From a virus (taxonomy: Duplodnaviria > Heunggongvirae > Uroviricota > Caudoviricetes), in IMG/VR virus record IMGVR_UViG_3300031088_000776: a stretch of 64,000 bases of DNA. The stretch is one strand, 5' to 3'. Position 1 is the first letter of the stretch, and the number at the start of each line of letters is the position of its first letter. The position numbers and the translations under genes were made by a program. The notes beneath the pieces are model-generated. The model was not told the origin of the DNA. It ran no database searches and saw only the letters and a program-made list of their open reading frames with translations. This document shows positions 18,486 to 59,885 of this stretch, in pieces.

Positions 18486-19337
18486 ATGCCTAAAAAAGAA
18501 GAATTAACCGCAAGGGAACAAGTGCGGCTTGAAATGAAGAAAATGAATCAAGGTAATAAAAGAGGTGGCTTCTTTTCCAATAAGTTCGTAATCACGTTCG
18601 GAGTCATCTTTATTATCGCAGCATTTGTAGGCTCGCTTTTAATGTTTGGCGAAAAGCAGCAGGAAGAAGCTAAAAAAGCTATGGCCCCCGTTGTAGATTT
18701 AGTACCTGAAAAGGTTGACGAAAATGGTGCTTTCAGAGCTGTTCAAACAAAAAACAACGAACTTTCTAAGGATGCTGTTCGAGTAGATCTATTCTTCGAC
18801 CCACAATGCCCAGGCTGTGGAGCCATGGATAGAGCAATCGGTAGTGATCTTCGAGAACTTTCCGAAACTGGAGAAATTGATCTTTATTTGAGCCCAGTCG
18901 CGTTTTTAGATAATTCCGGTTATAACAGATACTCTACTAGAGCAACTAATGCTGTCGTCACTGTTGCTGAGGAATCACCTGAAAATCTTGTAAAATACAT
19001 AAACGCAATTTATTCTGAAGAATTCCAGCCTGCTGAAGGCGGCGCAGATCGCCGCACTGACGATGACCTCATTAACGAAGCTGTAGAGGTTGGAGTACCA
19101 CAGGATTCAGCTAATAAAATTAAGAATCACTCATACTTTAAATGGATTGAAGAGACTACAGAATTACAGACTAACCGTCAAGATCTGTTTGCAGGAGGAT
19201 TCTCCACTCCATCACTATTCTTAAATGTTGAGTACAGTGAAGATAATAAAGCTATTAACTTCAAGAAGCTTGATTTCTCTAACGGTTCAATTCAGGACGT
19301 ATTCAATAAAGAACTTAAAGAAGCTAAGAAAGGCTAG
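18486..19337 (+). CDS. membrane-anchored DsbA/thioredoxin-like thiol:disulfide oxidoreductase
   Basis: N-terminal TM helix followed by the CPGC active-site motif in FFDPQCPGCGAMD. The gene ends TAG TAA TAA. Confidence 0.55.
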   Translation: MPKKEELTAREQVRLEMKKMNQGNKRGGFFSNKFVITFGVIFIIAAFVGSLLMFGEKQQEEAKKAMAPVVDLVPEKVDENGAFRAVQTKNNELSKDAVRVDLFFDPQCPGCGAMDRAIGSDLRELSETGEIDLYLSPVAFLDNSGYNRYSTRATNAVVTVAEESPENLVKYINAIYSEEFQPAEGGADRRTDDDLINEAVEVGVPQDSANKIKNHSYFKWIEETTELQTNRQDLFAGGFSTPSLFLNVEYSEDNKAINFKKLDFSNGSIQDVFNKELKEAKKG

Positions 19338-19346
19338 TAATAAAAA

Positions 19347-19901
19347 ATGACTACAGTAAAAAATTTAGATAATCCACAGATTCTACCAATTAATAACCAC
19401 GGTGACTTACGTGGAGCGCATATTAAACTTTATGGATCTGTTCCTGAAAATCTTCTTATCGAAGGTTTTGAAATTAAAGAAGTTTTCATGACCGACTCTC
19501 ATAAAGATGTAGTACGAGGATTGCACTTCCAAGAAGGTGCCCCTCAGTCAAAGATTATTACGCCACTTACTGGTGCTATCCAAGTTAATGTAGTTTATCT
19601 TGATCCGAAGCACGAGAAGTTTGGAGAAGTTGAGCATTACACCTTAAACTCGACTGACAATAAAAGGCTATATGTTCCAGGAATGTGCGGACTTGGTTAT
19701 AGAGTTCTAACTAGTGAGACTAAAGTTCTATATATGGCTAACGAGCACTTCGTCCCAGGTGCTGATACTGGTATTGATCCATTCGATTCTGAATTGAATA
19801 CCTACTGGGGAGAAAACATCAATAAAGATTCTGCAATTCTTTCAGATCGAGATAAAGAACTAGGCTCATTTGCAGACTACGCTAAGAGAGTTGGTAGGTA
19901 G
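19347..19901 (+). CDS. RmlC-like cupin (dTDP/CDP-sugar 3,5-epimerase family)
   Basis: GDLRGAHIKLYGS and VVRGLHFQ resemble the RmlC substrate-binding motifs. Confidence 0.55.
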   Translation: MTTVKNLDNPQILPINNHGDLRGAHIKLYGSVPENLLIEGFEIKEVFMTDSHKDVVRGLHFQEGAPQSKIITPLTGAIQVNVVYLDPKHEKFGEVEHYTLNSTDNKRLYVPGMCGLGYRVLTSETKVLYMANEHFVPGADTGIDPFDSELNTYWGENINKDSAILSDRDKELGSFADYAKRVGR

Positions 19902-19902
19902 C

Positions 19903-22080: not shown

Positions 22081-23373
22081 GTGTCCAAAAAAGATACTAA
22101 CGAGATTTTAGATGAGAATCAGCAGTCGCTTGAAGAAACTAGTAATGATTCAGTAAGTGAGCTACCAACAGAAGCTATAGAAAACTTCAAGTACTTCGAA
22201 AAAGGACCTAAACGCCCTAAACAGCTAAAAGAATCAAGTGATGAGCACATTTACTACCACTATGAGTTATTTACTGGATGGACTGATGAAGAAATTGAAG
22301 AAGCCAATCGCAAAGAGCGAGAAGAATCGGAAAAGGCTCTAGAGCAAATCAAGGCGGATGGTTTCATTGAATTTCCAATATGGTTCGAAAATGTAGATGG
22401 GGAGACTGTAGAGCGTTCAGCTTGGATACCACCTAATTTTGAACCTAGCTGTAGCGAAGGATTCCGTGAAAAATACGGAATGAACTATAATATCTATATT
22501 CCCTCATACGAGCGTTACGACAAAGCACTTACAATGAAGATGCTTGATCGCCTAGGCGTTAAGAATTACTACATTGCAGTTGACCCTACTCAATATGAGA
22601 AGTACAAAGCAGTCTTCGGTCCCGATAAAATTATTATTAGAGACATCTATTTTAAAGATACTGACATGCTTGACATGGCTACTTCAATTAAGTCTCCAAA
22701 TACTATGCACGGTACCGCAGGTATCTACAACTTCTTACTATCTTTCAGTAGATCTATCGGTGAAGAAAAATACTGGACTATGGACGATGACTTCTTAGGT
22801 ATGGCAATGAAAGCACATAAGGGTTCCGAAATTTGGAATCCCTCAGTTAAGCCTTATAATAAAGAAGATTTCTATCGTTGCTCTAACATTAAGTCAGAGT
22901 ATGGATTCAGTCAAGCGGAGTTCCTATGTTCTATGGAGGATCTTTCGAATAAGATGCGTAATCCAGGGTTCGTAGGTCTAGAGAAATTCGGAATCGTTTT
23001 TACACTTCCAGTAGTTTGGAAACTTGGAACAAGAGTCTACTCATTCTACCTTTCAGACAATAAGACTCAGATTAACCACTTTGGGGGAAACAACAATGAT
23101 GTAGTGACGAGTTTAGAGTTAAGCAAGCGCGGTCTAGTGAATATGCTCTTTGAAGGGATTTCTTATAATAGTGAACCAACCCAAGGGGGAGGCGGACTTA
23201 CAACATCATACAGAAGGTTCGGGACTTTACAAAAGGGTAAGATATTAGTTCGCGCAGTGCCTAACTTCTCAAAAATCTCCTACAATTATAGCAGAATCCA
23301 TCACTTCGTAGACTACAATGGCTACAACCGCCAGCGTATCGTTGGCGCTGTAAAACCTGAAGAAGAGAAGTAA
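22081..23373 (+). CDS. hypothetical protein, possible GT-A-like glycosyltransferase
   Basis: Acidic N-terminus. YWTMDDDF is a DxD-like motif. No strong motif evidence. Confidence 0.25.
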   Translation: MSKKDTNEILDENQQSLEETSNDSVSELPTEAIENFKYFEKGPKRPKQLKESSDEHIYYHYELFTGWTDEEIEEANRKEREESEKALEQIKADGFIEFPIWFENVDGETVERSAWIPPNFEPSCSEGFREKYGMNYNIYIPSYERYDKALTMKMLDRLGVKNYYIAVDPTQYEKYKAVFGPDKIIIRDIYFKDTDMLDMATSIKSPNTMHGTAGIYNFLLSFSRSIGEEKYWTMDDDFLGMAMKAHKGSEIWNPSVKPYNKEDFYRCSNIKSEYGFSQAEFLCSMEDLSNKMRNPGFVGLEKFGIVFTLPVVWKLGTRVYSFYLSDNKTQINHFGGNNNDVVTSLELSKRGLVNMLFEGISYNSEPTQGGGGLTTSYRRFGTLQKGKILVRAVPNFSKISYNYSRIHHFVDYNGYNRQRIVGAVKPEEEK

Positions 23374-28575: not shown

Positions 28576-29409
28576 ATGAATAGAATTTATAGGAATCTTG
28601 AAGAAATTGCACCTCATTTAGTTTCAGAGTGGGATATAGAACGCAATGGGAATAATCTTTACACTCATTTTTGGAATACTCGAGAAGACCCACCCCACTG
28701 GAAATGCAAAAAAGACCACCGGTGGACTATGCGATGGGATGCTAGAGTTGATCAAGGGCAAAATTGCCCCTATTGCTCTGGTAGAAGAATTATAGTCGGG
28801 GAGAACGATCTTCAGACTCGATTTCCAGAGATTTCTAAAGATTGGTCATTCGAATTAAACGAGCGAACGCCTATTGATTATCACCCCTATTCCCATAACA
28901 GAGTTTGGTGGAATTGTTCTGAAAATATTCACAAACCCTATTCACAGTTAATCTCTAAAAGAACTGGTCGTGGTACAGGTTGCCCTGAATGCTCTAAAGG
29001 TAGGGGCTCATCTAAAGGTGAATTTGAAGTTGGCCAACTTCTTGAAAGCATGGGGCTAAATTTTATACAGAATTCTAGAAAGATTATTCCACCTATGGAA
29101 TTAGACTTTTATATTTCTTCTCTTAATATTGGGATTGAATACAATGGAGAGTGGATGCATTCTAATCAAGCCTTGAAGCCTGATTCAAAGGATTCAAGTT
29201 TTCGTGATTATCACCTTAGGAAAAAGCGGCTTGCTAATTCTGAGAGTATTGATTTAGTTTTTGTGTGGGAGCATGATTGGACTGTACATAGAGATATAGT
29301 AAAAGAAGCTTTAATAGTGTTTTTCAAAACTGGGAAAATTTCAAAAATTCTTTCTCGTTTAGAGTCTTTTAAAGATGTTGATAAGGATTGCTGTTTATCG
29401 CGAGTCTAG
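28576..29409 (+). CDS. zinc-ribbon repeats plus a Vsr/DUF559-like endonuclease domain (homing-endonuclease-like), paralog 1
   Basis: WKCKKDHRW..CPYCSG, WNCSENIH..CPECSKG, then ELDFYISSLNIGIEYNGEWMHS..DLVFVWEHDW, which resembles the Vsr FVDGCFWH core. Confidence 0.6.
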   Translation: MNRIYRNLEEIAPHLVSEWDIERNGNNLYTHFWNTREDPPHWKCKKDHRWTMRWDARVDQGQNCPYCSGRRIIVGENDLQTRFPEISKDWSFELNERTPIDYHPYSHNRVWWNCSENIHKPYSQLISKRTGRGTGCPECSKGRGSSKGEFEVGQLLESMGLNFIQNSRKIIPPMELDFYISSLNIGIEYNGEWMHSNQALKPDSKDSSFRDYHLRKKRLANSESIDLVFVWEHDWTVHRDIVKEALIVFFKTGKISKILSRLESFKDVDKDCCLSRV

Positions 29410-30909: not shown

Positions 30910-32049
30910 ATGAATACAGTGAACTTTAAAGGTAATAATTATGATACAGATAAAATCGCTCGACTTTATATTGAAGAAAATCTAACTCTTCAGGAAACCT
31001 TTGAAAAACTCAAAGATGAGATAGACTTAAATATTAAAGAGTTCAAAAGCTTAGTAAACAAGACTGGGCTTAAAAAGAGTGACTCTAATAGACGCGAGTC
31101 GCAGGGGATAAAGAATCATAGGATTACTCAAAGAATTCTTAAAATTATAGAATCTTCAGAAAAGAAACTTAACTCTTTTTCTAGTAAGACTGCTTATGCG
31201 AGATATCTCCACTCAGAGAATCCCGAGTATTCAGTTAGACAATTCGAGAAGAGGATTGTTATAGAAGATAAGAAAGATTTTGTAAGATTTTTTGAAGTTT
31301 ATCCAGAGTTGAAAGATTATTTATATGATAAAGACTCTTTAGATATAAACTCAATAAGTATCTCTAGTCATTTAATTGTTGATTGGATCTGCGATTTGTC
31401 TCATATCTATCAGAGGTCATTTCAGGAAATGAATAGAGTAAAGAAATATTGTTACTACTGTAGTAATCAAAAAGTTCTTAAAGGTTTTAATGATCTTAAA
31501 TCTCAGTATCCTTTGATTGCCCTTGATTATTCATTTAGCAATGATTTAAAAGCTGATGAGATTTATTGTAAGTCTAGCAGAATAGTTGAGTGGGTTTGCC
31601 ATAAATGTAGCCTTAAATGGTCTCAAGCTCTTTGCAATAGAACTTCTTATAGCGAATCAGAATGTTCTAATTGCACTGATCGTATTTCGAAGCATGAGTC
31701 GAGAGTTTTAGAATTTGTTAAGACTTTCTATACTGGAGAGATACTGAGAAATAAAATGCCTTTACGTGAGGGGTCATCAAGATTTCAGATAGACATTCTT
31801 TTACCCGAACTTAAACTTGGTTTTGAGGTTCAGGACTTCGCTACACACTCTAAGACTTCAGAAGATGAGGTTTCTAGATTTAAGGGTGTTACTGGGCTAA
31901 AGAAAGGTCCTAATTATCATGAGAATAAGCGGAGGCTTGCTAAAGAGCAATTAGATGTGACTTTGATAGATCTTTGGCAGGATGAGATTGAATCTGGAGA
32001 TTTTGAAGAAGTTATTTTAGAAGCTATTCGTGAAGTCAAGGGCGCTTAA
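30910..32049 (+). CDS. zinc-ribbon repeats plus a Vsr-like endonuclease-like domain, paralog 2 (divergent C-terminus)
   Basis: WICDLSH..CYYCSNQKVLKGFNDL and WVCHKCSLKW..CSNCTD, then QIDILLPELKLGFEVQD. Confidence 0.5.
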   Translation: MNTVNFKGNNYDTDKIARLYIEENLTLQETFEKLKDEIDLNIKEFKSLVNKTGLKKSDSNRRESQGIKNHRITQRILKIIESSEKKLNSFSSKTAYARYLHSENPEYSVRQFEKRIVIEDKKDFVRFFEVYPELKDYLYDKDSLDINSISISSHLIVDWICDLSHIYQRSFQEMNRVKKYCYYCSNQKVLKGFNDLKSQYPLIALDYSFSNDLKADEIYCKSSRIVEWVCHKCSLKWSQALCNRTSYSESECSNCTDRISKHESRVLEFVKTFYTGEILRNKMPLREGSSRFQIDILLPELKLGFEVQDFATHSKTSEDEVSRFKGVTGLKKGPNYHENKRRLAKEQLDVTLIDLWQDEIESGDFEEVILEAIREVKGA

Positions 32050-33540: not shown

Positions 33541-35007
33541 ATGTCAAATAATGAAAGCGATCTATATAAGAAATCGCAAAGAATGCTTATTGCATCCTTG
33601 ATTTATAACGGAAGTGACGCAACAAGAGTATTCGAATTAATTACTCCTGAGGATTTTCAAGAGCCGTCATTCCAGCTAATCGCTGACGCTATAGTGGAGT
33701 TAATTCGTACAGACATAAAGATTACTGCAATCTCAATTGCGACTGAGCTTGAGAATCGTGGCCAGCTAGCTGCTGTAGGAGGAACTAGTGAGCTTTATGT
33801 TCTTAATAATGAAGGGCGCAAGTATCTTCGTGAGAACTCTATTACTCTCTACGCTTCAGTAGTCAAAGAGACCTCAGCAAAAGCGAAAATTCTTAACGAA
33901 ATTAAAGAATCAGCAAAAAGTCTTAAACCAGATTCAGGTATTTCAGCAGCTGAAACGCTAGCCTCATTGCAGTCTAATCTTAATGAGCAATTATATAGGT
34001 TGTCTGATGATTCTACAGTGACACAAATCGCTGAAATTATTCCAGAATATTTTGATCTTCTAGAAAAGCGCAAAATTACTGCTGAAGAAAACGCTAAGAA
34101 TGGTGGAGGTCTTCAAGGTATACCCTCTCTTATCCCAACTATTAATAAGATTACTACAGGATGGTTGCCAGCTCAGTTAATTACTATTGGCGCGCGTACT
34201 GGTATCGGTAAGTCTGTTTTTGCTGTAAACTCAGCTGTAGCTGCTGCAGAAGCTAACAAGTCAGTGTTATTCTTCTCGTTGGAAATGAAGAATGAAGAGA
34301 TTCATGACCGAATTCTTTCTTCAATGTCTGGAGTTGAGTTGTCTAAAATTAAAGAAGGCGACATTAGCGCAGAAGATAAGAAAAAATTAGAAGAGGCATC
34401 TGAAAGAGCCTCTAAAATGAAAATCATGATTGAGACTGAGCCTGAATTAACTGCGGAGGGTATTCGCGCTAAGGCTCTTCGCAGAGCTCAATCACCTGAA
34501 GGCTTAGATATTATTATTCTCGATTATCTACAGCTTCTCAAAGTTTCTAAGAAGTCTAATAACCGCCAGGAAGAGGTTGCTAATTTTTCAAGAACTATGA
34601 AGCTTTTAGCAAAGAGCCTTGACGTTCCTATTATGGTACTCGTACAGCTTCAGCGTGAAAAAGATGATGAAGAAAACTCACTACCTCAGATTCACCAAAT
34701 TCGTGAATCTGGTGCTATTGCTATGGACTCAGATATTGTTATTTTGATTCACAGAGACAAGACTATTGACGGAGAGATTCCTGATACGTTACTTATTGTT
34801 GCTAAGCATAGAAACGGTAGACAGGGTGATATTATTAGATGTAGTTCGAATCTTGAATACTCTCTCTTTAGAGAGATTAAGAGAGCTAAAGATGCTGAGA
34901 CTATAACTGATGATGACCTAGAGTCACTTATGGACGATGATTTAGAAATTGACGAATCAGATTTAAATGATCTTGATTTGGACGACGAGCTGGATTTTGG
35001 TGATTAA
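33541..35007 (+). CDS. dnaB: replicative DNA helicase, DnaB family
   Basis: The C-terminal RecA-like domain carries Walker A GARTGIGKS and FFSLEMKNEEI, with a DnaB-type N-terminal domain. Acidic C-terminal tail. Confidence 0.85.
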   Translation: MSNNESDLYKKSQRMLIASLIYNGSDATRVFELITPEDFQEPSFQLIADAIVELIRTDIKITAISIATELENRGQLAAVGGTSELYVLNNEGRKYLRENSITLYASVVKETSAKAKILNEIKESAKSLKPDSGISAAETLASLQSNLNEQLYRLSDDSTVTQIAEIIPEYFDLLEKRKITAEENAKNGGGLQGIPSLIPTINKITTGWLPAQLITIGARTGIGKSVFAVNSAVAAAEANKSVLFFSLEMKNEEIHDRILSSMSGVELSKIKEGDISAEDKKKLEEASERASKMKIMIETEPELTAEGIRAKALRRAQSPEGLDIIILDYLQLLKVSKKSNNRQEEVANFSRTMKLLAKSLDVPIMVLVQLQREKDDEENSLPQIHQIRESGAIAMDSDIVILIHRDKTIDGEIPDTLLIVAKHRNGRQGDIIRCSSNLEYSLFREIKRAKDAETITDDDLESLMDDDLEIDESDLNDLDLDDELDFGD

Positions 35008-35009
35008 TA

Positions 35010-35441
35010 ATGACAAAGAAAAAAAGCAAGCAAACTCCAATTCCTCACCGAAGGAATGCTCTACATCAGGGTTTACCAGGACTTGAATTTCCGAATATTA
35101 AGCCTGAAGACTTAATAGCATTAACGCCTGAGCAGAAGTCTGAGAAGTTTCTTACTAAATATATGCAGATTGTCGATCCTATTATTAGATACTCTGAATA
35201 CTTCGATTCTACAGCAAAAGAAATTTCAGTTATCTACAAGCAAATTAAAGTAGGGTATATCAATTTAGTTGTTACTGAAAAATGGACTGAGAAGAAATAT
35301 GTTGCTGTGATTAATAGGATTTTTGAGCAGAAGAGCGAAATCAATACCTTTATTCTTGATAGAATAGGTTTCATGTATGATAATGGAGTTCTTGATCAGC
35401 AGGAAAATAATAGAAATTCTGTAAGGAGAGTTAATAGATGA
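35010..35441 (+). CDS. hypothetical protein
   Basis: 143-aa ORF overlapping the next gene (ATGA). Confidence 0.45.
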   Translation: MTKKKSKQTPIPHRRNALHQGLPGLEFPNIKPEDLIALTPEQKSEKFLTKYMQIVDPIIRYSEYFDSTAKEISVIYKQIKVGYINLVVTEKWTEKKYVAVINRIFEQKSEINTFILDRIGFMYDNGVLDQQENNRNSVRRVNR

Positions 35442-36208
35442 GTATAGACGAGAATGATGATCTCACTAGATATGTGGGAGAAAACTTCAAGTTCATTAAT
35501 AAGAATGAAACTGACTTTGAGTCTTTTAATGCCCTTACTGACCGCATCAACTCAACTTTCGAGTCACTTGAAAAAGAAAGATCTCTTGAGGTAAGAAAGA
35601 AAAGATTAGTCATTTGGGATGACAAGACCCCACCTCGCTGGAAGGGCGCCTCACTTTCGCAAATTGAGAAAAATACTGCTAAAAGAATTCTAGGATTACT
35701 TAAAGAAGACTCCAGTGGTTCATTTTTCTTAACTGGCAGAGCCGCTAAAGACAAGAATTTCCATGCTTACGCTATTATGAGAAAGCTTATTGGCGCTGGA
35801 AAGATCGCACCTTCTAAAATTAAGATTATTTCAGAAGACACTTTACTTAGCTACTCTCAGACTGGTTTTGAGGGAAGAGCTAGAATTGATGAACTCTTAA
35901 GTGAAGAATATGATGGTTTCATTATTGATAACATTGGTTCCAAGGAATTTTATGACGCTAAGCGAGAAATCCCTGTTTTAGAGCAACTCCTATTGAATAT
36001 TTACAATAGATCTTTACCTACAGTTTTCATTAGTAATATCTCAGTTGAAGATTTCTATGGAATTCTAGGTAAGGGCCCTGCAGATAAGATGAGAGACATC
36101 TTAGATAATCGTATTATTGATTTAGGGTCTAGTGAGAAAAGACAGTCACGAGAAAGCTCGCCAGCAAAAACTTCACGTAAAAAAATTGAAGATAATTTTG
36201 ACGGTTAA
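35438..36208 (+). CDS. hypothetical protein, possible helicase-loader-like
   Basis: Sits directly downstream of dnaB. FFLTGRAAKDK is a degenerate P-loop-like segment. No canonical GKT. Confidence 0.3.
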   Translation: MSIDENDDLTRYVGENFKFINKNETDFESFNALTDRINSTFESLEKERSLEVRKKRLVIWDDKTPPRWKGASLSQIEKNTAKRILGLLKEDSSGSFFLTGRAAKDKNFHAYAIMRKLIGAGKIAPSKIKIISEDTLLSYSQTGFEGRARIDELLSEEYDGFIIDNIGSKEFYDAKREIPVLEQLLLNIYNRSLPTVFISNISVEDFYGILGKGPADKMRDILDNRIIDLGSSEKRQSRESSPAKTSRKKIEDNFDG

Positions 36209-36309: not shown

Positions 36310-37095
36310 ATGACTGAAAATAAAATTAAGAAGGTAGTAATCTTCGCGGGTGGAGAAGGAACTCGACTCGCGGAGCTTACTGAAAAAACTCCGAAGCCTT
36401 TAGTTAATATTGGCCCAGACCCAGTAATTGTCCATATCATGCGACACTTCTATCGTGCGGGTTACAGAGAATTTGTTATTGCTGTAGGTTATAAGTCTAT
36501 TGAGTTTAAGCGTTACTTTAGAGATTATGTTCTTGCAAAGCGTGATGTTACTTTTACTAAGAATGACATTCAAGTGAAAGACTCTAATGATGTTGAAGAC
36601 TGGATTGTCCATGTTGTAGAGACTGGCGAAAAATCCACTACAGCGCAACGATTAAATGCTGTAGCGCCATATATTGATGGCGAACCATTCTTCCTCACTT
36701 ATGGTGATACTGTATCAGATGTAGACTTAAAGAAGCTTGAAGAAGTTCATTTCTCACGCCCTGAAGGAAATCTAGCAACGCTAACTGCAGTCAATATTGA
36801 AGAGCGTTTCGGTATTCTTAAGTTGAATAAAGAAACTGGTGCAGTTGATAAATTCAGCGAGAAGTCTTCTGATAAAGAAAATATGATCAATGGCGGCTTT
36901 ATTGTATGTAATCCTGAATTGCTCAATGAGGTGAATGAAAACTCAGGTGACTTTAGCCATGAGACGCTTAATCGCTTAGGTGACGAAAACAAGTTGAGTT
37001 TCTATCGTCATGATGGATTCTGGAGCGCTATGGACACTAAGCGCGATAATGACAAGCTTAATAAGCTATACGTCACGAATCCAGAATTATTCTAG
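36310..37095 (+). CDS. glucose-1-phosphate cytidylyl/thymidylyltransferase (RfbF/RmlA-like)
   Basis: VVIFAGGEGTRLAELTEKTPKPLVNIG matches the N-terminal GGxGTRL nucleotidyltransferase signature. Confidence 0.8.
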   Translation: MTENKIKKVVIFAGGEGTRLAELTEKTPKPLVNIGPDPVIVHIMRHFYRAGYREFVIAVGYKSIEFKRYFRDYVLAKRDVTFTKNDIQVKDSNDVEDWIVHVVETGEKSTTAQRLNAVAPYIDGEPFFLTYGDTVSDVDLKKLEEVHFSRPEGNLATLTAVNIEERFGILKLNKETGAVDKFSEKSSDKENMINGGFIVCNPELLNEVNENSGDFSHETLNRLGDENKLSFYRHDGFWSAMDTKRDNDKLNKLYVTNPELF

Positions 37096-37159
37096 ATTTT
37101 TTGATAAAAAGAAATAGTGGAAAGAAAGTTAGAAACACAGTAAGGAAAGAGAGAACATA

Positions 37160-39499
37160 TTGTCTAAAAGAAGTAGAAGAAAAGAAGCAGAAGAAGAGTC
37201 ATTCATTGACTTCTTCTCAGATAAAGCTCTCGTAGTTGAAGAATATAAAGAAAAGAAAACTTTCAGCAAAAACCTTAAAGCAGTTGCTGGCTTTCTTTCA
37301 CTATCAGTAATTCTCGGTTTAATCGTGACTATATACCCTATCATGGGGTTAAGTGCAGCGGCTAAGGTTGCTGAACCAATTGCTAAATATTGGAAAGACC
37401 TACCTTCAGAACTTGGCGAGACTTCAATCGCTGAAAGAAACGTTCTTTATGATAAGAATGGTAATATATTTGCGGAGGTTTGGGCTGAAGACCGCGTTCA
37501 GCTAAACTCCTTAGATGAAATTAGCGATTATGCTAAAAATGGTCTTATTGCGACTGAAGATAAGAGGTTCTATGAGCATGCTGGAATTGACTTCATAGGT
37601 ACGGCTCGATCAGCAATTTCGGGCTCAGGTGGCGGTTCAGGCATCACTCAGCAGCTTATCAAAAACTTGCAATTCTATGATCAAGCAGGTAAGGAAAAGA
37701 AAGCTGATGCGATTGAGCATTCATTATCAAGAAAGCTACAAGAATTAAAATACTCTATGGAGTACGAGAAGAGTCATTCTAAAGATGAAATACTTCTTGA
37801 ATATTTCAATACAGTAGCTTTTGGTGGCCCTAATACATATTCTATTGAAGCCGCTTCCCAATACTTCTTCGGAAAATCTGCTAAAAAGTTAGACCTTGCT
37901 GAGGCTTCAGCTCTCATTGGCACGGCAAACAATCCAGTTCTATTTAACCTTAAGCATACTGACGATGATGCACGGTGGAAAGACAGGCAGAAAGCTGTTC
38001 TAGATCGGATGGTAGCTGAAGGGCACATTACATCTGAAGAAGCTAAAAAGGCTGCAAAACAAAAACTTAAAATAGTCTTAAAAAAGTCACGTGGTAATTG
38101 TACTTCAAGCGAATATCCTTTTTACTGTGAGTATGTTATTGATTATTTAACCGACTCTGAAAAACTTGGTGAAGCTGCTGAGGAACGCGCTGCAGTTATC
38201 GCTAAGGGCGGTCTTCACATTAAGACTCATATGGACCCCGCTGCAATGGATCAAATTGATAAGAAACTTGAAGCAGAATTTGGGAACAACAATAGAGTTG
38301 TAGCACCTGTCGCCTTAGTCGAAGCTGGAACAGGCGGAGTCACTGCATTTGGTGTTAATAGAGATTACGGTGAAGGAAAAGGTAAGACTGTAATCAATGT
38401 TGCTAATAATCCCGCAGCAACGGGTTCAGCATATAAGGTATTCACTCTAGCAGCTGCTTTAAATTCTGGAAGAACAGAGTCTAGCTTAACTTTTGATGCA
38501 CCGTGTGTTTTTGCTCCTCAGGGTTATGATTATCCTAATAGCGGTTTTAAGAACTCTCAAGGTTGCGGTAAGCAGGCCGGTGTTCTAAACTATCAGCAAG
38601 CAACGGCTTACTCTTCTAACACTTGGTATACTAAATTAGCCACACAAATTGGATTAGATAAAGTTTACGACATTAGTCGGCAGTTGAATCTTAATGTCCC
38701 TGAAAACCTAACTAATAGAAGTCTTTCATTTGTTCTAGGTCCTGTTGAGAACTCTCCTATTGACATGGCAGCGGCATATGCTACATTTACTAATAAGGGA
38801 GTCTTCTGTCCAGCAACGCCCATTGAAGAATACCATTATTCTGATGGATCAGTTCCTGCGGTACCAGATACATACAGACCTGAAGATGATTCTTGTAAGC
38901 GTGTAACTTCACCAGCTACAGCTAGTACTGTATTAAAGGCTATGCGAGCAAATACTTATGGCGATGGAATTCCTGGTGCTTTTGGTACTCAAGGTCGAAT
39001 TAGTGGTTATGACTCTGTAGGTAAGTCTGGTACTAACCAGAGATATAATTACACTCAGGGTCAAGTCTCCGCTGATTATGGATTCTTTATTGACATTTAC
39101 GATATGGATAAAGTAAATAGAGGGGTTTATCAGAATAGTTATTATAGAGGTCAATTATGGCCTTACAACTACTCCGCTAAAGCGACTTCTTCAATCTTTG
39201 GGTCAGTTTTGAAAATGGGTAAGAATAAGAGTCTAGATTTCAACAATAAAGACACTTCATTCACTCCAGTGGAAATTGAAAAGAGAGATTATTTTACGAT
39301 TCCTTCAGTTCTTGGTATGACTGCTGAACAAGCAATGGATGCTATGTCTTCTATTGGCATACCCGTCTACGTCAGTAAGGAAACTGTAAAGGCTGATGGA
39401 CAATTCCCTGTCGGGGTCATTGGTGAGCAATCAATTTCCCCAGGCGAGGAGTTACCAGTTGGCACTAAGAAAGAAATTGTTCTTTACATAACTGAATAG
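37160..39499 (+). CDS. class A penicillin-binding protein (GT51 transglycosylase plus transpeptidase) with a C-terminal PASTA domain
   Basis: N-terminal TM helix. GT51 motif IATEDKRFYEHAGIDF. Transpeptidase motifs GSAYK (SxxK), SSN (SxN) and KSG. The C-terminal segment IPSVLGMTAEQAMDAMSSIGIPVYV is PASTA-like. Confidence 0.8.
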   Translation: MSKRSRRKEAEEESFIDFFSDKALVVEEYKEKKTFSKNLKAVAGFLSLSVILGLIVTIYPIMGLSAAAKVAEPIAKYWKDLPSELGETSIAERNVLYDKNGNIFAEVWAEDRVQLNSLDEISDYAKNGLIATEDKRFYEHAGIDFIGTARSAISGSGGGSGITQQLIKNLQFYDQAGKEKKADAIEHSLSRKLQELKYSMEYEKSHSKDEILLEYFNTVAFGGPNTYSIEAASQYFFGKSAKKLDLAEASALIGTANNPVLFNLKHTDDDARWKDRQKAVLDRMVAEGHITSEEAKKAAKQKLKIVLKKSRGNCTSSEYPFYCEYVIDYLTDSEKLGEAAEERAAVIAKGGLHIKTHMDPAAMDQIDKKLEAEFGNNNRVVAPVALVEAGTGGVTAFGVNRDYGEGKGKTVINVANNPAATGSAYKVFTLAAALNSGRTESSLTFDAPCVFAPQGYDYPNSGFKNSQGCGKQAGVLNYQQATAYSSNTWYTKLATQIGLDKVYDISRQLNLNVPENLTNRSLSFVLGPVENSPIDMAAAYATFTNKGVFCPATPIEEYHYSDGSVPAVPDTYRPEDDSCKRVTSPATASTVLKAMRANTYGDGIPGAFGTQGRISGYDSVGKSGTNQRYNYTQGQVSADYGFFIDIYDMDKVNRGVYQNSYYRGQLWPYNYSAKATSSIFGSVLKMGKNKSLDFNNKDTSFTPVEIEKRDYFTIPSVLGMTAEQAMDAMSSIGIPVYVSKETVKADGQFPVGVIGEQSISPGEELPVGTKKEIVLYITE

Positions 39500-39651: not shown

Positions 39652-40215
39652 ATGTCTGAATTTCAAGATTTTATGAAAGATGTTGACTCTAAAGTAGAGG
39701 GATATCTCAAAGCAAAGAAAGAACTGGAAGAGGCTAAAAGAAATCTTGACAGTTTTCTAGATAGCGCGAAGATTCTATCTACTAAAATTTCAGGAATGCT
39801 TTCTGAAGATTCGACTGAAAGCGAAGCAGAGCCTAAAGAGGTTAAACCCTCAAAGCCTGTTAAGGCTAAAGAAGAAAAGCCCTCTAAGGAAGAACCTGAG
39901 GTAGTTTCTGAACCTGAGGTTTCAATTGAAGATGAAGCTATTGAAGAGAAGCCATCTAAAGAAAAAGTTGCCCCCAAAAAACCTGCGAAAAAAGTAGAGC
40001 CTGAAAAAGTTGTTGAAACTAAGTCTGAAGAATCAAACAAATCTGAAGAAAGTTCGGTAAAACATACTAAGGACGAAAAGATCGCTGATTTAGACGATTC
40101 TCTTGATGTTGAGTTCGATAACATGTTCAGCGATGACGAGCTCTCAGGATTAGGCTTAGACTTTAGCCTTGATGCCGAATTAGGCGATTCTGACGTAGAT
40201 AATATTGAACTTTAA
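39652..40215 (+). CDS. acidic low-complexity protein (KPSK/EE repeats)
   Basis: 187 aa rich in Glu, Lys, Pro and Ser. Confidence 0.5.
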   Translation: MSEFQDFMKDVDSKVEGYLKAKKELEEAKRNLDSFLDSAKILSTKISGMLSEDSTESEAEPKEVKPSKPVKAKEEKPSKEEPEVVSEPEVSIEDEAIEEKPSKEKVAPKKPAKKVEPEKVVETKSEESNKSEESSVKHTKDEKIADLDDSLDVEFDNMFSDDELSGLGLDFSLDAELGDSDVDNIEL

Positions 40216-40241: not shown

Positions 40242-41486
40242 ATGAAACTAACACTTGATTCAAAGGCTTTTGTTGAAGCAGTAGCCTGGGTTACTAAAAA
40301 TTACGACGCTAAAGACACTAAAGCATATGTGTCACTTTCTGTAGCGGAAGACGGAAAAGCTATCGTCTCACATGAAAGCCGTAGCTCATACATTCAAACT
40401 GAACTAGCCTTGATTAACACTGATTTCACAGGTGATTCTGTAAATAAAGCTGATCTCGCACTTGATGGTCGATTCCTTCAGCGTCTTTCAGGGGCCTTGA
40501 GTGGCACTTCAGGCGAGATCGTTCTTTCAAAGAAGCTTGATGATAATAAGACCGTAGATGATATGGATGACTTTGAAGACGAAGATTCACATGAGGAGAT
40601 TGTAGGCAAGAGTACTCCGCTACAAGTCAAGACTAGCTCAGGTACATTCACTGTGCCAGTATTCCACGCTGCACCTTCAAAGCAGCCGAAAATTGTCGAA
40701 TTTGGTGAAGTTCTAGAAGTTGAGCTATTCGATTCACTTCAGCGCGTAGCAAAACTGACTGACGTAGCTAATGCTAGCGTTCTTCCGGCTCTGGGATGTG
40801 TAGACATTAGACTGTCTGCTGAGGATGAAACTCTCTCAATGATGACTACAGACCGATTTGCTATGAGTGAGATTACTCTTGATTTTGCGCCGACTGATAA
40901 TGGAGAGCTAGAAAACCATAACATTGATATTCTGCTTCCTTATGATAGTGCTATCACTGTTCCAGCATCTAAAAATACTGGTGATTCAGTAAAGGTCGTT
41001 TACGCGCCTAAGACAAAGAAATTCGGCTTCTCTTTCACCGATGGTCGAATTGCACTATTCTCTCTTGAAAGCGCAGATCCGCTAGAATACAAGCCACTCA
41101 TCGAACACGCTAACGAAACTGTTGAGCATTCAATGATTGTCTCAACTAACGATCTTAAGAAAGCAGTTGCTAACGTATCTAATCTTTCTTGGGAAGAAAA
41201 TATGATTTGGATGAATATTTCTGAATCAGGTGATCTTACGGTTACAGATCAGCATCAGACTAACGTTCAGAAAGTTGAAGGTACTGACGCTGAAATTGAG
41301 GGTGACTTCAGAGTTTCTTTCAACCGTGCAGTACTAAACAAGGCATTTAGCCCAATTAGCACTTCACGAGTTCAGCTCCGCTGGTTGAATGAATCAAAGC
41401 AATTCTGCTTTAGCTTAGTTCTTGATGATGACACAATTGCTGATAATGTATTTATTCTAGTACAGCCTTCAGTAGAAAACGACTAA
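40242..41486 (+). CDS. DNA polymerase sliding clamp (beta-clamp-like)
   Basis: The N-terminus MKLTLDSKAFVEAVAWVTK...LSVAEDGKAIVSHESRSSYIQTEL follows the DnaN pattern of MKFtveR..L...vs, ....L.L..dg.l.l.gtD.e. Confidence 0.45.
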   Translation: MKLTLDSKAFVEAVAWVTKNYDAKDTKAYVSLSVAEDGKAIVSHESRSSYIQTELALINTDFTGDSVNKADLALDGRFLQRLSGALSGTSGEIVLSKKLDDNKTVDDMDDFEDEDSHEEIVGKSTPLQVKTSSGTFTVPVFHAAPSKQPKIVEFGEVLEVELFDSLQRVAKLTDVANASVLPALGCVDIRLSAEDETLSMMTTDRFAMSEITLDFAPTDNGELENHNIDILLPYDSAITVPASKNTGDSVKVVYAPKTKKFGFSFTDGRIALFSLESADPLEYKPLIEHANETVEHSMIVSTNDLKKAVANVSNLSWEENMIWMNISESGDLTVTDQHQTNVQKVEGTDAEIEGDFRVSFNRAVLNKAFSPISTSRVQLRWLNESKQFCFSLVLDDDTIADNVFILVQPSVEND

Positions 41487-41508: not shown

Positions 41509-42195
41509 ATGGAGCCAATGGTTCTTGAATCTTTACTAATTTTTGCCGCATCTCTTTTAATTCCGGCAGGCTTACTTATACTCTCACTTAAAAGAAAGCC
41601 AGTATGGGTTCCTGAAGGACCATTGGCTCCATTCTGGTCTAAATTAAACTATTTTAGTTTCGGCCTTTCAGCTTTAGTTTCAGCTTTGGTAGTTATCTTT
41701 TATAAAGATTATGCATTCACTTTTAAAGGATTAGTGGCTTTAACTGTAGCGCCTTATGCCTACATATTTCTTCAAACTCTTTTTACAGACTTTAAGCAAA
41801 GGCTAGCTGACAGAAGAATCTTAAATATTAGCATTGTATTTTCAGCGATATTAGGGATAATTTTCTTAAATCATTATAATTATCCTGATCTAGTCAACTT
41901 TGTTCTATTCTTTATTTTTACTGCAATACTATTCTTTATCCCGTCAATTGGTGAGTCCGATACTCGAGCCTTAGCCTTGACATTGTCTGTAGCTTATCCT
42001 ATTATTGGTCTAACTGGAATTAAGCTTGCATTAATATTATTCTTCCCGCTTCTTATTAGTTATTTTATTTATTTAGCAATAAAGAATAAGAACTTTAAAG
42101 CTGCTTTTGCTGCTCGAGTCTCTATTCCTATGGTCCCTTTTATAATTCTACCCGCACTTCTTCTTGTAGTTTCATATCCGTTTATGAGCTTTTAA
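41509..42195 (+). CDS. polytopic membrane protein
   Basis: At least six predicted TM helices. Confidence 0.5.
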   Translation: MEPMVLESLLIFAASLLIPAGLLILSLKRKPVWVPEGPLAPFWSKLNYFSFGLSALVSALVVIFYKDYAFTFKGLVALTVAPYAYIFLQTLFTDFKQRLADRRILNISIVFSAILGIIFLNHYNYPDLVNFVLFFIFTAILFFIPSIGESDTRALALTLSVAYPIIGLTGIKLALILFFPLLISYFIYLAIKNKNFKAAFAARVSIPMVPFIILPALLLVVSYPFMSF

Positions 42196-55856: not shown

Positions 55857-57062
55857 TTACTGTTCATTAAGATGAGCAATAATTCTATCAGCTTCAGAAT
55901 AAGTTAGATTCTTGCGGCTGTCAACTTCACGACCAAGGAAGTCAGAGAGCCATTTTAGTGCTCTTGATTTCTCCCAATTGTAAATTCCAATAAATTCAAG
56001 CCCTGCGAAGATTTCTCCACGCTGGTAGTTAGTCATATTGTAAACAGTTGAACCGCTATTAGCTTTAGAGGTCATTGAGTCTGATGATTCAGTAGTTTTA
56101 GTATCATTGTCAACACTTGTTGAAACACTTTCAGAATCTTTCGTAGAATCCTTAACTGAATCTTCACTCTTAGTGGAGTAGATACCTGACTTCAACGGCG
56201 CATTAAGAACATCAATGATTTCATATTTGTCTGTGCGGCCCTTCTGAGCATCACAGTCTGTAGGAATACTGACTACGTTCGCAGGATGAATCTTTAGCAA
56301 GAATACGTTTCCATCGCGAGAGTGACCCTGAGCAAAGTTGAGAGTCGAGAAGTGCAAGCCTGGTCCACACCCTTGAGCGGGATCTGCAGTAACGTCAGAA
56401 CGCTTCATGAAGACTGTAGTCCCTACCTCATTTGGAATTTGCGAATTAACGTAATCAGTAACTTCACCGTTCTTTAGGACTGAAGAGTTACCTGACCAAC
56501 CTGAGTAGTGAACACCATCTTTAATGACTGGGCATCCCTTGTAAGCTAGGAAGTAACCATCATCAGTAATCGTGAATCCACCGTGAGCGGCCTGCATAGA
56601 AGCTAACCATGAGTACAGTTGATCACGGACGAATGGGTCAGTGTTCTGCTGTAAGTTTTCAACAAACTTAGCGAATGATGACCAAATCTTCTCGTCTCGA
56701 GGTGAAGAGTCGCTCTTGAACATTCTCGTAATGTGTGCGGAAAGGTGCTCGTTTAACTTCTCTCCATTGTAATATACTGAAGCGTCTTTAGTAGTAAAGA
56801 TACCGTTAGTAGGAGACTTCAATGCTTTGCGAACTCGAGCCTTAGTGTCGATTAGCTCAATAATCTCAGTCGCAATTCTGCTTTCTTCCTCGGGGGATTC
56901 GGCCTTATTGTATTCAGAGAATAATTCGCGAGCGCTACTGAATCTTTCTGAACCTTCTGAAACAGAGGCCCAACGCTGAACATTGTCTTCATCTTTAAAG
57001 AGTAGCTTAAGGGTTTTCTTCCCTGAAGTGTCTTTAGTAAAATTTGCTGTAACGATTTCCAT
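55857..57062 (-). CDS. hypothetical protein (401 aa)
   Basis: ORF with a Ser/Thr/Asp-rich middle segment and no confident motif. Confidence 0.5.
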   Translation of the reverse strand: MEIVTANFTKDTSGKKTLKLLFKDEDNVQRWASVSEGSERFSSARELFSEYNKAESPEEESRIATEIIELIDTKARVRKALKSPTNGIFTTKDASVYYNGEKLNEHLSAHITRMFKSDSSPRDEKIWSSFAKFVENLQQNTDPFVRDQLYSWLASMQAAHGGFTITDDGYFLAYKGCPVIKDGVHYSGWSGNSSVLKNGEVTDYVNSQIPNEVGTTVFMKRSDVTADPAQGCGPGLHFSTLNFAQGHSRDGNVFLLKIHPANVVSIPTDCDAQKGRTDKYEIIDVLNAPLKSGIYSTKSEDSVKDSTKDSESVSTSVDNDTKTTESSDSMTSKANSGSTVYNMTNYQRGEIFAGLEFIGIYNWEKSRALKWLSDFLGREVDSRKNLTYSEADRIIAHLNEQ

Positions 57063-57111
57063 TATTTCACTACTTTCTTGTTTGTAAGCTTACTTTTCTA
57101 TTTTACCAAAT

Positions 57112-59511
57112 TTATGCGCTGATTGATTTGACTCGATCAATGTAAACTGCCCTCATGCTACGCTTCAGTTCTTCATCTTGAACGTTAAGAGACTCAATAG
57201 AAAAATTGTTGTGGACTAAGAACATAGCTTTATTGAGAAGATCTTTTGTCTTCTTTGGGGCCTTCGATGACTTCAGAGTGTCCTTAAGTCCTCTAAAATT
57301 GTCATTGGTTAGCATATGGTACAAAGTATAATCAATTTCTCCGCTGTAATAGAGTTTTCTAAAGTTAAGATCAGGTGTTGAAGCCTTCATTTTACCCATC
57401 TCTGTTGGGAATAATGCTTCTAATTCATTTAGCTCTAGGCTTCTCTTGTAGCTTGAGAAGTAGTAAGTCATGATTAACTTGAATAGATTCTCAGGGTCAT
57501 TTTCGATCAACTTTGAAATTGCTCGACGCATATTAGCTTCGGGCTTCACAAGGTTTTTCTTAGCATATTCAGTAAGATAAACTCCACGAGGTGGCATTGT
57601 AGTGAATACGCACTTTTTACCTTTTGACTCTAATTCTTGAAGGTGGCTAGTCTTAAAATCATTGTAGTCAACGAATAGAACACAATCGCTCTCGACATCA
57701 ATTTTCTCTGAATTGTCAGCTCCGTTTGCAGCGTGCTCAATCTTGCAATCGCTACTCCGATAAACAATAACAGAATCAATCTCATTTAGACTATAAGTTT
57801 TCTTGAAAGCTTTAATGCCAATACTGTCTTTAGGGGATAACCAGCCTTTAATCAATCCACTATCTGCGCTTACAGAATTAGAACCTCTTGACTTCTTATT
57901 TTCGCGCTTATACTTTCGAGCCTCAGCAAGAAGATCTAGCATCGAAATAAACTCAATCTCACAGTCAAAGAGAACTCCCTTTGTAGAAATCAACTTAGGC
58001 ACTTCAAAACCTTCTTCAAGAATAATGAAAATGCTCTTACGCTTATCACCGCGAGAAGCTAGGAAACCGCGGCGGTGCTCATGCCAACCCTTAATAGTTT
58101 CGCTGCTAGCACCTGTTACGAAGAAGACATTATCAAAATCAGAACTTTCACCGCTTCTCGTAATGTTTTCATGGACGACAGAGCTATAAAAATCTTTTGG
58201 CTCGTGAGCATCGAAATTCTTTTCGAATTCCTTTGGTGAGCACTTCTCGATGTTGCATGTGTCTGAATATTCATAATTAACTTTATCTGAATTATTATTA
58301 GGAGAATTATGGCGTCTTCTAGCCACAATTGCTTCACGAACCCCTTTAGAATCAACAAGATTTCTAATAGTGTTGTAAATGCTTAGAGACTCGATTTTTT
58401 CTTTGTATGACTCATCAAATTTCAATACTGAATGAACAGTTCCAGATTGCGCAACTCTTCCGAAGTAAGATACACACATGTTCATAGCCTTAAGAGCTCT
58501 CTTCTCAAGAGATGTATTCATAGAGTCTACCGCCTTCAAGCAGTCAAACTTAAACTCAGGACCATTAATATAATCGTGAATCTTTCTATTTAGCTCTTCA
58601 CTGCGATTATCATGAGTAACTTCATCACGCGACGAGCTAAAGTTTACTACACCAGGCTTCAACTCAAATAGGATATTAGGCTCATCATTGTAGTAGTAGT
58701 TCCGATACTGTGAACCCTGTGAATAAACCCAGCCTCCAAGCCATAAAGCGGGGTTCAAGCGACTAATGTTCAATTCTGAGTTCATAAAGACTCGACCGTA
58801 AGTCTTTTCACCAGTCTTCTCGTCTTCATCAAGTAGTATCTCACCGATAGTGATCCAGTCCTTGGAGGCCTCGAAGCTATCTTCACCGTTGATGACAATT
58901 TCAAGGTCAAGTGAGTACTTCTGATACTTTTTAACAAGCTTCAGGAATTCTGAAGTGTCATCCTCTTTTACGGGGATAGAGACTTCAGTACCAGTAGAGT
59001 CATTCGTGGGACGATTCTTATAGACTACTTTAAGTTTGTAGCCAGCACTAGTATTGCTAAGAATGACAAGATTGGCTAGGCCGTCTTTAATAGATCGAAT
59101 ACTGAATTCAGTAGTGTAAGAGAGAGGCGCCTTGATACCTAGACCGTGCGAACCGATCTGAGTCATATCATCACCCTTATCGCTAGCACCGTAGTATCGG
59201 CAGTACTTAGTGAGAGAATCATAGTCCATACCAACACCGAAGTCACGAGTGATAAAAGTTCCCTGAATAGAGTCAAACTCTACCTGAATAGGCTTAGCAT
59301 TAGGTACTCTTACTGATGCGTCAATAGCATTAGAGATAGTTTCTCGAACTGTAGCTTCTTTAGGGTTCTTGTAAAGAAGAGTTAATCGGTCGATAATGTG
59401 ATTACGAGATTCCGAAAGTACATCCATATCAAATTCTTCAACAGGTTCAATAAGAGACTCTACAGTCTCCTTAGAAATTGTTGAATTATTTGATGATTTA
59501 GACAAAGCCAT
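57112..59511 (-). CDS. GHKL-superfamily (Hsp90/MORC-like) ATPase domain protein, about 800 aa
   Basis: N-box TISNAIDAS, G1 ITRDFGVGMD and G2 GSHGLGIKAPLS. GGAGGAG RBS lies before the ATG at 59511, which starts MALSKSS. Confidence 0.55.
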   Translation of the reverse strand: MALSKSSNNSTISKETVESLIEPVEEFDMDVLSESRNHIIDRLTLLYKNPKEATVRETISNAIDASVRVPNAKPIQVEFDSIQGTFITRDFGVGMDYDSLTKYCRYYGASDKGDDMTQIGSHGLGIKAPLSYTTEFSIRSIKDGLANLVILSNTSAGYKLKVVYKNRPTNDSTGTEVSIPVKEDDTSEFLKLVKKYQKYSLDLEIVINGEDSFEASKDWITIGEILLDEDEKTGEKTYGRVFMNSELNISRLNPALWLGGWVYSQGSQYRNYYYNDEPNILFELKPGVVNFSSSRDEVTHDNRSEELNRKIHDYINGPEFKFDCLKAVDSMNTSLEKRALKAMNMCVSYFGRVAQSGTVHSVLKFDESYKEKIESLSIYNTIRNLVDSKGVREAIVARRRHNSPNNNSDKVNYEYSDTCNIEKCSPKEFEKNFDAHEPKDFYSSVVHENITRSGESSDFDNVFFVTGASSETIKGWHEHRRGFLASRGDKRKSIFIILEEGFEVPKLISTKGVLFDCEIEFISMLDLLAEARKYKRENKKSRGSNSVSADSGLIKGWLSPKDSIGIKAFKKTYSLNEIDSVIVYRSSDCKIEHAANGADNSEKIDVESDCVLFVDYNDFKTSHLQELESKGKKCVFTTMPPRGVYLTEYAKKNLVKPEANMRRAISKLIENDPENLFKLIMTYYFSSYKRSLELNELEALFPTEMGKMKASTPDLNFRKLYYSGEIDYTLYHMLTNDNFRGLKDTLKSSKAPKKTKDLLNKAMFLVHNNFSIESLNVQDEELKRSMRAVYIDRVKSISA

Positions 59512-59885
59512 TTGTTCTCCTCCAAGATAGTAAATGTTCTTAAACATCCTATATGAAGAATTTAAAAGTTGCAAATCATTAATCAGAACTCTGTAAAGAA
59601 GACATTCTTAATAGTTTTATCTTCTACGTATTGCCTTAAAGAGTAAAACGCGAGGTAAAGATCATCTAAACAGCAAAAACGCTATCAATTAAAATTCAGT
59701 ATTCAGTTGCTATAGAAACGAAGAACTGATTTTAGAAAACTTTTTAAAAATTTTTAGAATTTTCATATTCAGGCTGTATCTCAGATGGTATATTGATTTT
59801 GCTCAATTCGATATTATTCCAAATTTTTAGTGCGGTGGCTCGCAAGGTCGCTAAACAAAGACTGTTTTAGCATAAGGAGTTTGTC

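Follow-up and report, generated by a model that had tools for sequence, protein, structure and literature searches.

A class A penicillin-binding protein held in a fixed place among the replication genes of giant phage-like elements

The PBP gene and its product

A gene for a class A penicillin-binding protein (PBP) lies in a 64,000-nucleotide stretch of DNA (the window) from the IMG/VR virus record IMGVR_UViG_3300031088_000776. The window has a GC content of 38% and belongs to a 697,643-bp metagenomic contig (k141_1324127 of ENA ERZ27247443), of which ~94 kb were inspected, i.e. the 64-kb window together with ~30 kb of flanking sequence; three 20-kb flanks of related loci were also scanned. 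The gene occupies positions 37160..39499 on the + strand, starts with a TTG codon that is preceded by a purine-rich ribosome-binding site (AGGAAAGAGAG), ends with a TAG stop codon and encodes 779 amino acids (aa), a length identical to that in the gene call of the source assembly. A predicted cytoplasmic tail of ~40 residues precedes a membrane anchor at approximately residues 41-63 (37280..37348, +), which is evident in the translation as the hydrophobic stretch AVAGFLSLSVILGLIVTIYPIMG and is overlapped by a helix predicted at residues 35-61 in the AlphaFold model of the protein; this is the usual N-in topology.

Three Pfam domains, all exceeding their gathering scores and all on the + strand, follow the anchor: a GT51 glycosyltransferase domain at residues 102-284 (37463..38011; PF00912 Transgly, E 2.3e-43) with catalytic residues E133 and E195, an acyl-serine transpeptidase domain at residues 385-646 (38312..39097; PF00905 Transpeptidase, E 1.1e-22) with the motifs S423xxK, S485xN and K622SGT, and a single C-terminal PASTA domain at residues 713-770 (39296..39469; PF03793, E 7.9e-7, 29.4 bits vs a cut-off of 23.2). 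Among 26 aligned homologues the GT51 motifs are invariant (E133/D134 of EDxxFxxHxG, GGSxITQQ and R191-K192-x-x-E195), as are those of the transpeptidase (S423-A-Y-K426, S485-S-N487 and the KSG variant K622-S-G-T); the GT51 motifs are in addition common to all of the cellular PBPs compared. The original prediction of a bifunctional PBP with GT51, SxxK/SxN/KSG and PASTA elements is borne out, with the ORFs at the coordinates it had given and domains and motifs intact, and the product is apparently a complete and active peptidoglycan synthase.

Judged by its sequence the protein is a divergent member of the class A PBP family: against the PBP1A family model TIGR02074 (NCBIfam PBP_1a_fam) it scores 281.7 bits, under the cut-off of 508.75. 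The AlphaFold model has a mean predicted local distance difference test score (pLDDT) of 80, with the PASTA domain in a strand-helix-strands topology. Foldseek matches this model best to Staphylococcus aureus PBP2 (3DWK/2OLV; E 1e-30, template modelling (TM) score 0.63 normalised to the target), and also to Escherichia coli PBP1b and Acinetobacter baumannii PBP1a. A sequence search of the PDB leads to the same families, again with S. aureus PBP2 (3DWK, 2OLV) as the best match at E 3e-27 and ~22% identity. However, the solved class A PBPs are without a PASTA domain and are chromosomal housekeeping enzymes.

The PBP has six invariant extracytoplasmic cysteines that occur as three close pairs, C314/C323, C449/C469 and C550/C579, and three disulfides are predicted from them. 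Two of the pairs, C314/C323 and C550/C579, are common only to actinobacterial PBPs among those compared, and the pair C449/C469 is specific to the clade of homologues described below.

A fixed position among replication genes

A homologue search of a large protein collection listed at least 120 clusters, nearly all of which are metagenomic, only one of the 120 being from NCBI. These homologues, at least 120 in number, share the three-domain architecture, are 767-829 residues long and are 47-96% identical. Gene order was compared over 25 related loci, i.e. 24 IMG/VR loci retrieved with the 26-sequence PBP alignment, all listed there as viral, together with a 727,572-bp sibling that the same sample had yielded. 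In 25 of 25 the PBP gene occupies the same slot, between genes for a DnaC-like helicase loader, which lies immediately 5' of it, and a DnaN-like sliding clamp. The order upstream is likewise the same in all 25: a DUF2201/vWA protein, RecA, a MoxR-type ATPase, DnaB, a small open reading frame (ORF), the DnaC-like loader and then the PBP. Downstream follow the DnaN-like clamp, a 228-aa membrane protein, a 296-aa protein, a Clp-type ATPase, a 366-aa protein and RecG. The relatives that conserve this order span a GC content of 36-57%.

In the window the DnaB-type replicative helicase is encoded at 33541..35007 (+; Pfam DnaB_C E 2.3e-67; TIGR00665 280 bits, under the 385 cut-off; in 25/25 relatives) and the DnaC-like loader at 35438..36208 (+; PHROG 3277 E 8e-11; NCBIfam DnaC E 5e-6; 25/25). 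On the other side of the PBP lie the divergent DnaN-like clamp at 40242..41486 (+; TIGR00663 42.8 bits vs a cut-off of 137.65; Pfam DNA_pol3_beta_3 E 8e-6; 25/25) and the 228-aa polytopic membrane protein at 41509..42195 (+), which is present in 24 of the 25 relatives and has no family match in Pfam, NCBIfam or PHROGs.

The PBP is as well conserved as the replication proteins with which it is associated. Its identity to the relatives is 49-59%, as compared with 46-60% for RecA, 43-57% for DnaB and 26-40% for the clamp, and it is no lower than the identity of RecA, DnaB or RecG. Between close relatives its ratio of nonsynonymous to synonymous substitution (dN/dS) is 0.02-0.10. A bifunctional synthase had been thought unusual cargo for a phage, an estimate that does not survive this comparison: the PBP is a position-fixed core gene of a clade of giant elements and is under purifying selection. 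Because it is so fixed and so strongly conserved, these elements seem to bring their own wall-building enzyme to Gram-positive hosts.

Some features of these loci vary. Between the PBP and clamp genes of the window lies a 187-aa acidic, low-complexity ORF (39652-40215, +) whose sequence is not conserved, and several relatives have a short ORF or a gap at its place. The DnaB (759-766 aa) and SNF2 (~1,000 aa, with a LAGLIDADG match) proteins of relatives appear to bear inteins. One relative, IMGVR_UViG_3300012642_000011 (437,576 bp), has the PBP locus twice (L013 and L021) in mirror image, at 74168-96630 and, reversed, at 340947-363409; since the loci are mirror-placed, this record probably arose as a palindromic artefact when an element of ~219 kb or more was assembled.

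Affinities of the protein and the likely host

The best cellular, plasmid or phage-record relatives of the PBP are at most 33% identical to it among the matches listed, and the closest cellular PBPs, among the matches listed, are actinobacterial at ~30% identity. In an exhaustive tblastn search of PLSDB the best end-to-end matches are PBPs on megaplasmids of Arthrobacter, Pseudarthrobacter and Paenarthrobacter, which cover residues 27-778, including the PASTA domain, at 30-33% identity (E 1e-74). These Arthrobacter-group proteins have the same end-to-end architecture of anchor, GT51, transpeptidase and one PASTA domain, the same catalytic motifs and two of the three cysteine pairs; they differ from the protein of the window in the low identity and in C449/C469, which is found only in the clade described here. 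When 80 cellular loci were scanned with a hidden Markov model built from the C-termini of the clade, PASTA was picked out in PBPs of Actinomycetota and of Clostridia only. PASTA-bearing class A PBPs of actinobacteria correspond to the PonA2 type of Mycobacterium; the PBP gene of the window is placed in the replication module of a giant phage-like element and not in a cell-wall or division locus.

The host is, on present sequence comparisons, most likely an actinobacterium. This affinity is suggested by the PASTA-PBP matches and the two shared cysteine pairs, together with an rIIA homologue whose best E-values are to Streptomyces phages, a RipC-like endopeptidase and a DUF3039 gene (described below), and a NrdE that is 71% identical to the NrdE of an Arthrobacter plasmid. 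In Actinobacteria, proteins that are exported commonly depend on disulfides, whereas in Firmicutes they tend to avoid cysteine.

Gene content of the carrying element

The main phage-type markers of the window are homologues of rIIB and rIIA (55857..59574, - strand; PHROGs 609 and 612, E ~1e-33; Pfam Phage_T4_rIIB); the rIIA homologue has matches in 2,554 phage records, those with the best E-values being from Streptomyces phages. Nucleotide metabolism is represented by two deoxynucleoside monophosphate (dNMP) kinases, a 5'-nucleotidase and a class Ib NrdE, with no NrdF gene following NrdE within the window. Further phage-type genes encode an Rnl1-like RNA ligase with Tpt1, a ParB-like nuclease, a TET-associated glycosyltransferase and an ADP-ribosyltransferase of the exoenzyme/Alt type (61743-62813, +), and there are at least five homing-endonuclease genes of the HNH/DUF4379 kind. 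The latter, at 17762-18304, 28576-29409, 30910-32049, 52725-53786 and 54118-55608, flank RecA and follow NrdE. By its gene content the window appears typical of the early region of a large virulent phage with T4-like genes.

A second group of genes, on both sides of the window, concerns the cell envelope. To the left (contig 150962-159600; L109 1-8635) is a complete type IV pilus set of PilT, PilC, PilD (prepilin peptidase), PilM, PilO and PilB, of which PilT scores 451 bits, above its family cut-off, followed by an RseP-like M50 protease and the DUF3039 gene; such a pilus set is unusual content for a phage. To the right (contig 222284-244218; L107, L112) is a second set of wall genes, which encode a polysaccharide deacetylase, an NlpC/P60-G5 endopeptidase (RipC-like), a G5-SLT transglycosylase, an S26 signal peptidase and a 644-aa membrane protein of DUF6575-TM-PASTA-repeat organization (P0163). 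P0163 is similar to the sensor part of PknB-type kinases but has no kinase domain, and shorter, PASTA-only homologues of it are widespread in the clade. Most of the envelope genes, though not those of the type IV pilus, recur in relatives.

The relatives recur in independent assemblies at discrete sizes of ~343-347, 394-424 and 496-539 kb, the smallest relatives being of ~317-347 kb, and the PBP is also found on single contigs of 543, 671, 682, 698 and 728 kb. SNF2 homologues of the PBP clade occur on contigs of 740,336 and 828,236 bp; if these are complete phage genomes, both would exceed the reported maximum of 735 kb (PMC7162821). In three relatives the conserved SNF2 helicase is directly followed by a dense array of tRNA genes that includes duplicates, with 21, at least 29 and 36 genes respectively (L122 18485-21008; L123 15126-21606; L125 12616-21544), and the 828-kb relative encodes a class II aminoacyl-tRNA synthetase (L123 4996-6471).

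Proposed role of the PBP

The reading that we favour, and hold to be rather probable, is that of a working PBP, a core gene of a giant phage-like element, that keeps the wall of the host built and repaired. The GT51 domain would polymerise lipid II into glycan strands, the serine transpeptidase would cross-link the stem peptides of the host peptidoglycan, and the PASTA domain probably helps the enzyme to bind or find nascent wall material. The PBP would be made together with the replication proteins, would fold with the help of a DsbA-like oxidoreductase of the element, and would work in concert with the S26 signal peptidase, the PASTA-repeat protein, the NlpC/P60-G5 and G5-SLT hydrolases and the type IV pilus genes of the element. 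The Gram-positive wall would in this way be kept growing or in repair while the element replicates or persists.

To our knowledge, phages are known for destroying peptidoglycan and not for making it. A PBP conserved among replication genes suggests that the elements need the host wall to be growing or under repair during replication, or that they reshape the surface in long-term carriage; the PBP offers a testable approach to the question of how a Gram-positive host is managed by very large phages or by phage-like elements. It is the context and not the kind of enzyme that is of interest here. The enzyme is of an ordinary kind, a divergent member of it, and class A PBPs borne on giant elements have already been published for the Inocles. 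No published description was found of the clade itself or of the fixed place of the PBP in its replication module; the literature searched, on PBPs encoded by phages, on oral megaphages and on huge phages with type IV pili, yielded nothing on the clade.

Several observations weigh against this reading of the PBP and its element. No capsid, portal, terminase or tail genes were found with PHROGs and Pfam in the window, its ~30-kb flanks or the three 20-kb flanks of relatives, so that the phage label rests on non-structural genes and on the IMG/VR listing. Examination of the context for structural and packaging genes, which had been proposed at the outset, thus yielded phage-type rIIA/rIIB and T4-type genes but no virion gene in ~94 kb. 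The 38% GC of the window is low for an actinobacterial host. The comparison with GTDB covers the matches listed, and a closer cellular relative of the PBP may exist. Finally, a promoter scan gave 14 promoter-like sites as against 13.6 expected in shuffled sequence; since such sites are not above the shuffled level, only the position of the gene suggests co-transcription of the PBP with the replication genes.

Virus, plasmid or cell

Of the alternatives, the one that survives best, though we think it unlikely, is that the element is not a virus but a giant plasmid-like extrachromosomal element, in which the PBP would serve as a carriage gene, altering or strengthening the host wall during long-term residence. 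The want of virion genes in ~94 kb of the contig and in the relatives' flanks is in keeping with this, as are the full type IV pilus set, S26 signal peptidase, M50 protease and wall hydrolases that flank the window. On the other hand, rIIA/rIIB, the T4-type dNMP kinases, the Alt-like ADP-ribosyltransferase and the densely spaced homing endonucleases are features typically met in large virulent phages, the 24 IMG/VR relatives are classed as viral, and no ParA, relaxase, InoC-type (PF13814) or type IV secretion genes were seen in the parts inspected. Two described elements bear on the question.

The first are the Inocles, giant extrachromosomal elements that occur in oral Streptococcus (Kiguchi et al. 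2025, PMC12340149). They are reported to conserve, across all their taxa, a bifunctional transglycosylase/transpeptidase, which is accompanied by an S26 signal peptidase, a RecD-like helicase and pol III genes (PMC12340149). This repertoire is similar to the one described here and lends the plasmid-like alternative some of its weight. The Inocles are reported as plasmid-like, 245-395 kb in size and 24-32% in GC, with InoC (PF13814), VirB4/VirD4, sortase A and many insertion sequences (PMC12340149). The likeness, drawn from the published description only, is that of a conserved class A PBP in a family of giant elements. However, the element of the window, at 697,643 bp and 38% GC (relatives 36-57%), is outside the size and GC range of the Inocles, and this difference speaks against placing it with them. 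It has rIIA/rIIB and T4-type genes and, in its PBP, a PASTA domain, which is unmentioned for the Inocle protein (PMC12340149); InoC (PF13814), VirB4/VirD4, sortase A and insertion sequences were not seen in the ~94 kb inspected.

The second is the plasmid NZ_CP099467.1 of Arthrobacter caoxuetaonis zg-Y453, circular, 374,851 bp and composed mostly of hypothetical genes, which shares part of the repertoire and is stably carried in an isolate. Shared with it are a full-length PBP with PASTA (30% identity), type IV pilus genes, of which the plasmid has two sets, a vWA+AAA pair, a tRNA array, here of 33 genes, and counterparts of NrdE (71%), the SPFH protein (49%) and the RNA ligase (42%); the plasmid also has SecYEG, NrdEFI, DnaE, LigA, RtcB and NAD-salvage genes, and it carries ParA, VirD4-like and FtsK-like genes. 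A PHROG scan of ten of its large hypothetical proteins revealed no capsid, portal or terminase and one endolysin-like protein. Because it is without the DnaB, RecA, RecG, DnaN clamp and rII genes of the clade, the plasmid is an analogue, and a distant one at best, rather than a clade member. The existence of plasmid-like elements with a like repertoire, together with the want of virion genes, nevertheless upholds the caution, voiced in the original prediction, that this segment may not be strictly viral.

A further alternative, considered very unlikely, is that the window is a piece of chromosomal DNA from an ultra-small bacterium, e.g. a Saccharibacteria-like Patescibacterium, and the PBP its housekeeping wall synthase. 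Contigs of 670-830 kb with 36-57% GC and type IV pili do resemble oral Saccharibacteria; RecA (331 vs 325 bits), PilT and NrdE score over their cut-offs, RecG and the Clp-type ATPase give strong matches, and several of the top GTDB matches, among those listed, are Patescibacteria. However, the PBPs of seven Saccharibacteria species are only 28-33% identical to that of the window and of other lengths, and their PilB is 40% identical. Relatives of ~317-347 and 394-424 kb are too small for Saccharibacteria-like cells, and no core genes of translation or transcription (ribosomal, aminoacyl-tRNA synthetase or RNA polymerase genes) occur in the ~94 kb of the contig. DnaN (42.8 vs 137.65 bits) and DnaB (280 vs 385) are well under the bacterial equivalog cut-offs, and RecA identity within the clade is only 46-60% despite strict synteny. 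The tRNA genes stand in arrays of 21-36 with duplicates, the window carries rIIA/rIIB and other T4-type genes, and only one of the at least 120 PBP homologue clusters is from NCBI. A Saccharibacteria chromosome was rejected on the PBP and PilB identities, the small relatives and the want of translation genes in the ~94 kb inspected.

Still less probable is a recent capture of a host gene (a moron or auxiliary gene) without a fixed role, or a beta-lactam-insensitive bypass enzyme conferring tolerance, since the PBP, although class A PBP genes are scattered on megaplasmids (490 PLSDB records matched) and a few are annotated in phage records such as that of Microcystis phage MaAM05, stands at one position in 25/25 relatives and is not patchy, is at most 33% identical to every cellular PBP found among the matches listed, has its clade-specific third cysteine pair and very low dN/dS, and carries nothing in its sequence that bears on beta-lactam affinity.

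Overall, we judge the element to be probably a virion-forming huge phage, with a non-viral giant element as a distinctly smaller possibility and a cell as a slim one; its status as a "phage" is likely but unproven. Huge phages are those with genomes >200 kb, the largest of 735 kb (Al-Shayeb et al. 2020, PMC7162821), and the text of that report leaves peptidoglycan synthases, penicillin-binding proteins and pili unmentioned (PMC7162821). The clade resembles them in the class of genome size and in having tRNA arrays, a suppressor tRNA, one relative with an aminoacyl-tRNA synthetase and a listing in IMG/VR; it differs in that one contig, at 828 kb, exceeds 735 kb and in that no virion genes were seen in the parts read. 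A 20-kb nucleotide search against INPHARED gave no match, and tblastn of the PBP and RecG against INPHARED gave only matches of at most 34% identity, mostly to unannotated or mislabelled records.

A bolder proposal, which we put forward only tentatively, is that these elements form an undescribed clade of virion-forming huge phages of ~0.32-0.83 Mb, with Gram-positive, probably actinobacterial, hosts and a core envelope-biogenesis kit. The kit would comprise the class A PBP, the DsbA-like oxidoreductase, the signal peptidase, the PASTA-repeat sensor-like protein, the wall hydrolases and the type IV pilus machinery. If this is true, wall building and remodelling in an infected cell would be the work of the virus itself, and the upper genome size of the clade would top that of the largest published phage genome (735 kb, PMC7162821). 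The finding also connects three hitherto separate observations, namely unclassified oral "huge phages", the Inocles and the tRNA-array megaplasmids of Micrococcaceae.

Neighbouring genes and other features of the window

Immediately upstream of the PBP gene in the window is a gene for a 261-aa RfbF-like sugar-1-phosphate nucleotidyltransferase (36310..37095, +; Pfam NTP_transferase E 1.6e-19). Its best NCBIfam match is glucose-1-phosphate cytidylyltransferase TIGR02623, over model positions 2-248 of 255, at 236.5 bits vs a cut-off of 300.25. The earlier RfbF-like call thus agrees with a full-length match, although because the score falls under the cut-off the product is RfbF-like and not a certified equivalog. 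Its position next to the PBP, to which attention had been drawn, is real in the window but is not a conserved pairing: the two genes adjoin in only one of the 25 related loci, and the adjacency is therefore incidental, an insertion particular to this lineage.

The window also has genes for an RmlC-like epimerase (19347-19901), an SDR dehydratase/reductase (19870-20772) and the TET-associated glycosyltransferase (22081-23373). Together with the RfbF-like enzyme these resemble a nucleotide-sugar pathway, possibly one for DNA hypermodification. Given their presence, the nucleotidyltransferase may feed a nucleotide-sugar pathway for glycosylation of DNA or of the surface rather than wall synthesis.

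A membrane-anchored DsbA-like thiol-disulfide oxidoreductase with a CPGC motif is encoded at 18486..19337 (+; Pfam Thioredoxin_4 E 9e-8). It had been described as near the PBP; the gene is indeed present, but it lies 18 kb upstream and is not adjacent. L002 and L106, the nearest two of the relatives examined, have a homologue ~10 kb upstream of the PBP. The DsbA-like protein is a candidate folding partner for the three predicted disulfides of the PBP.

A tRNA gene at 3539-3611 (+) has the anticodon CUA, which would read the UAG stop codon (ARAGORN label Pyl; Rfam tRNA 62.6 bits); in its vicinity are Tpt1 (1054-1581) and a YpsA-SLOG gene (498-1061). The window shows no stop-codon recoding: its ORFs are intact in the standard code, which gives a coding density of 84%, and TAG ends 10 of 55 genes; the suppressor tRNA may act on genes elsewhere in the element.

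An SPFH/Band-7 protein (11667-12575, +) is the one that is 49% identical to its counterpart on the Arthrobacter plasmid. A zeta-toxin kinase domain protein is encoded at 5588-6679 (+; Pfam E 6.6e-17). Zeta toxins phosphorylate UDP-GlcNAc and block wall synthesis, and the presence of one would be notable here, since the element has a wall synthase as well.

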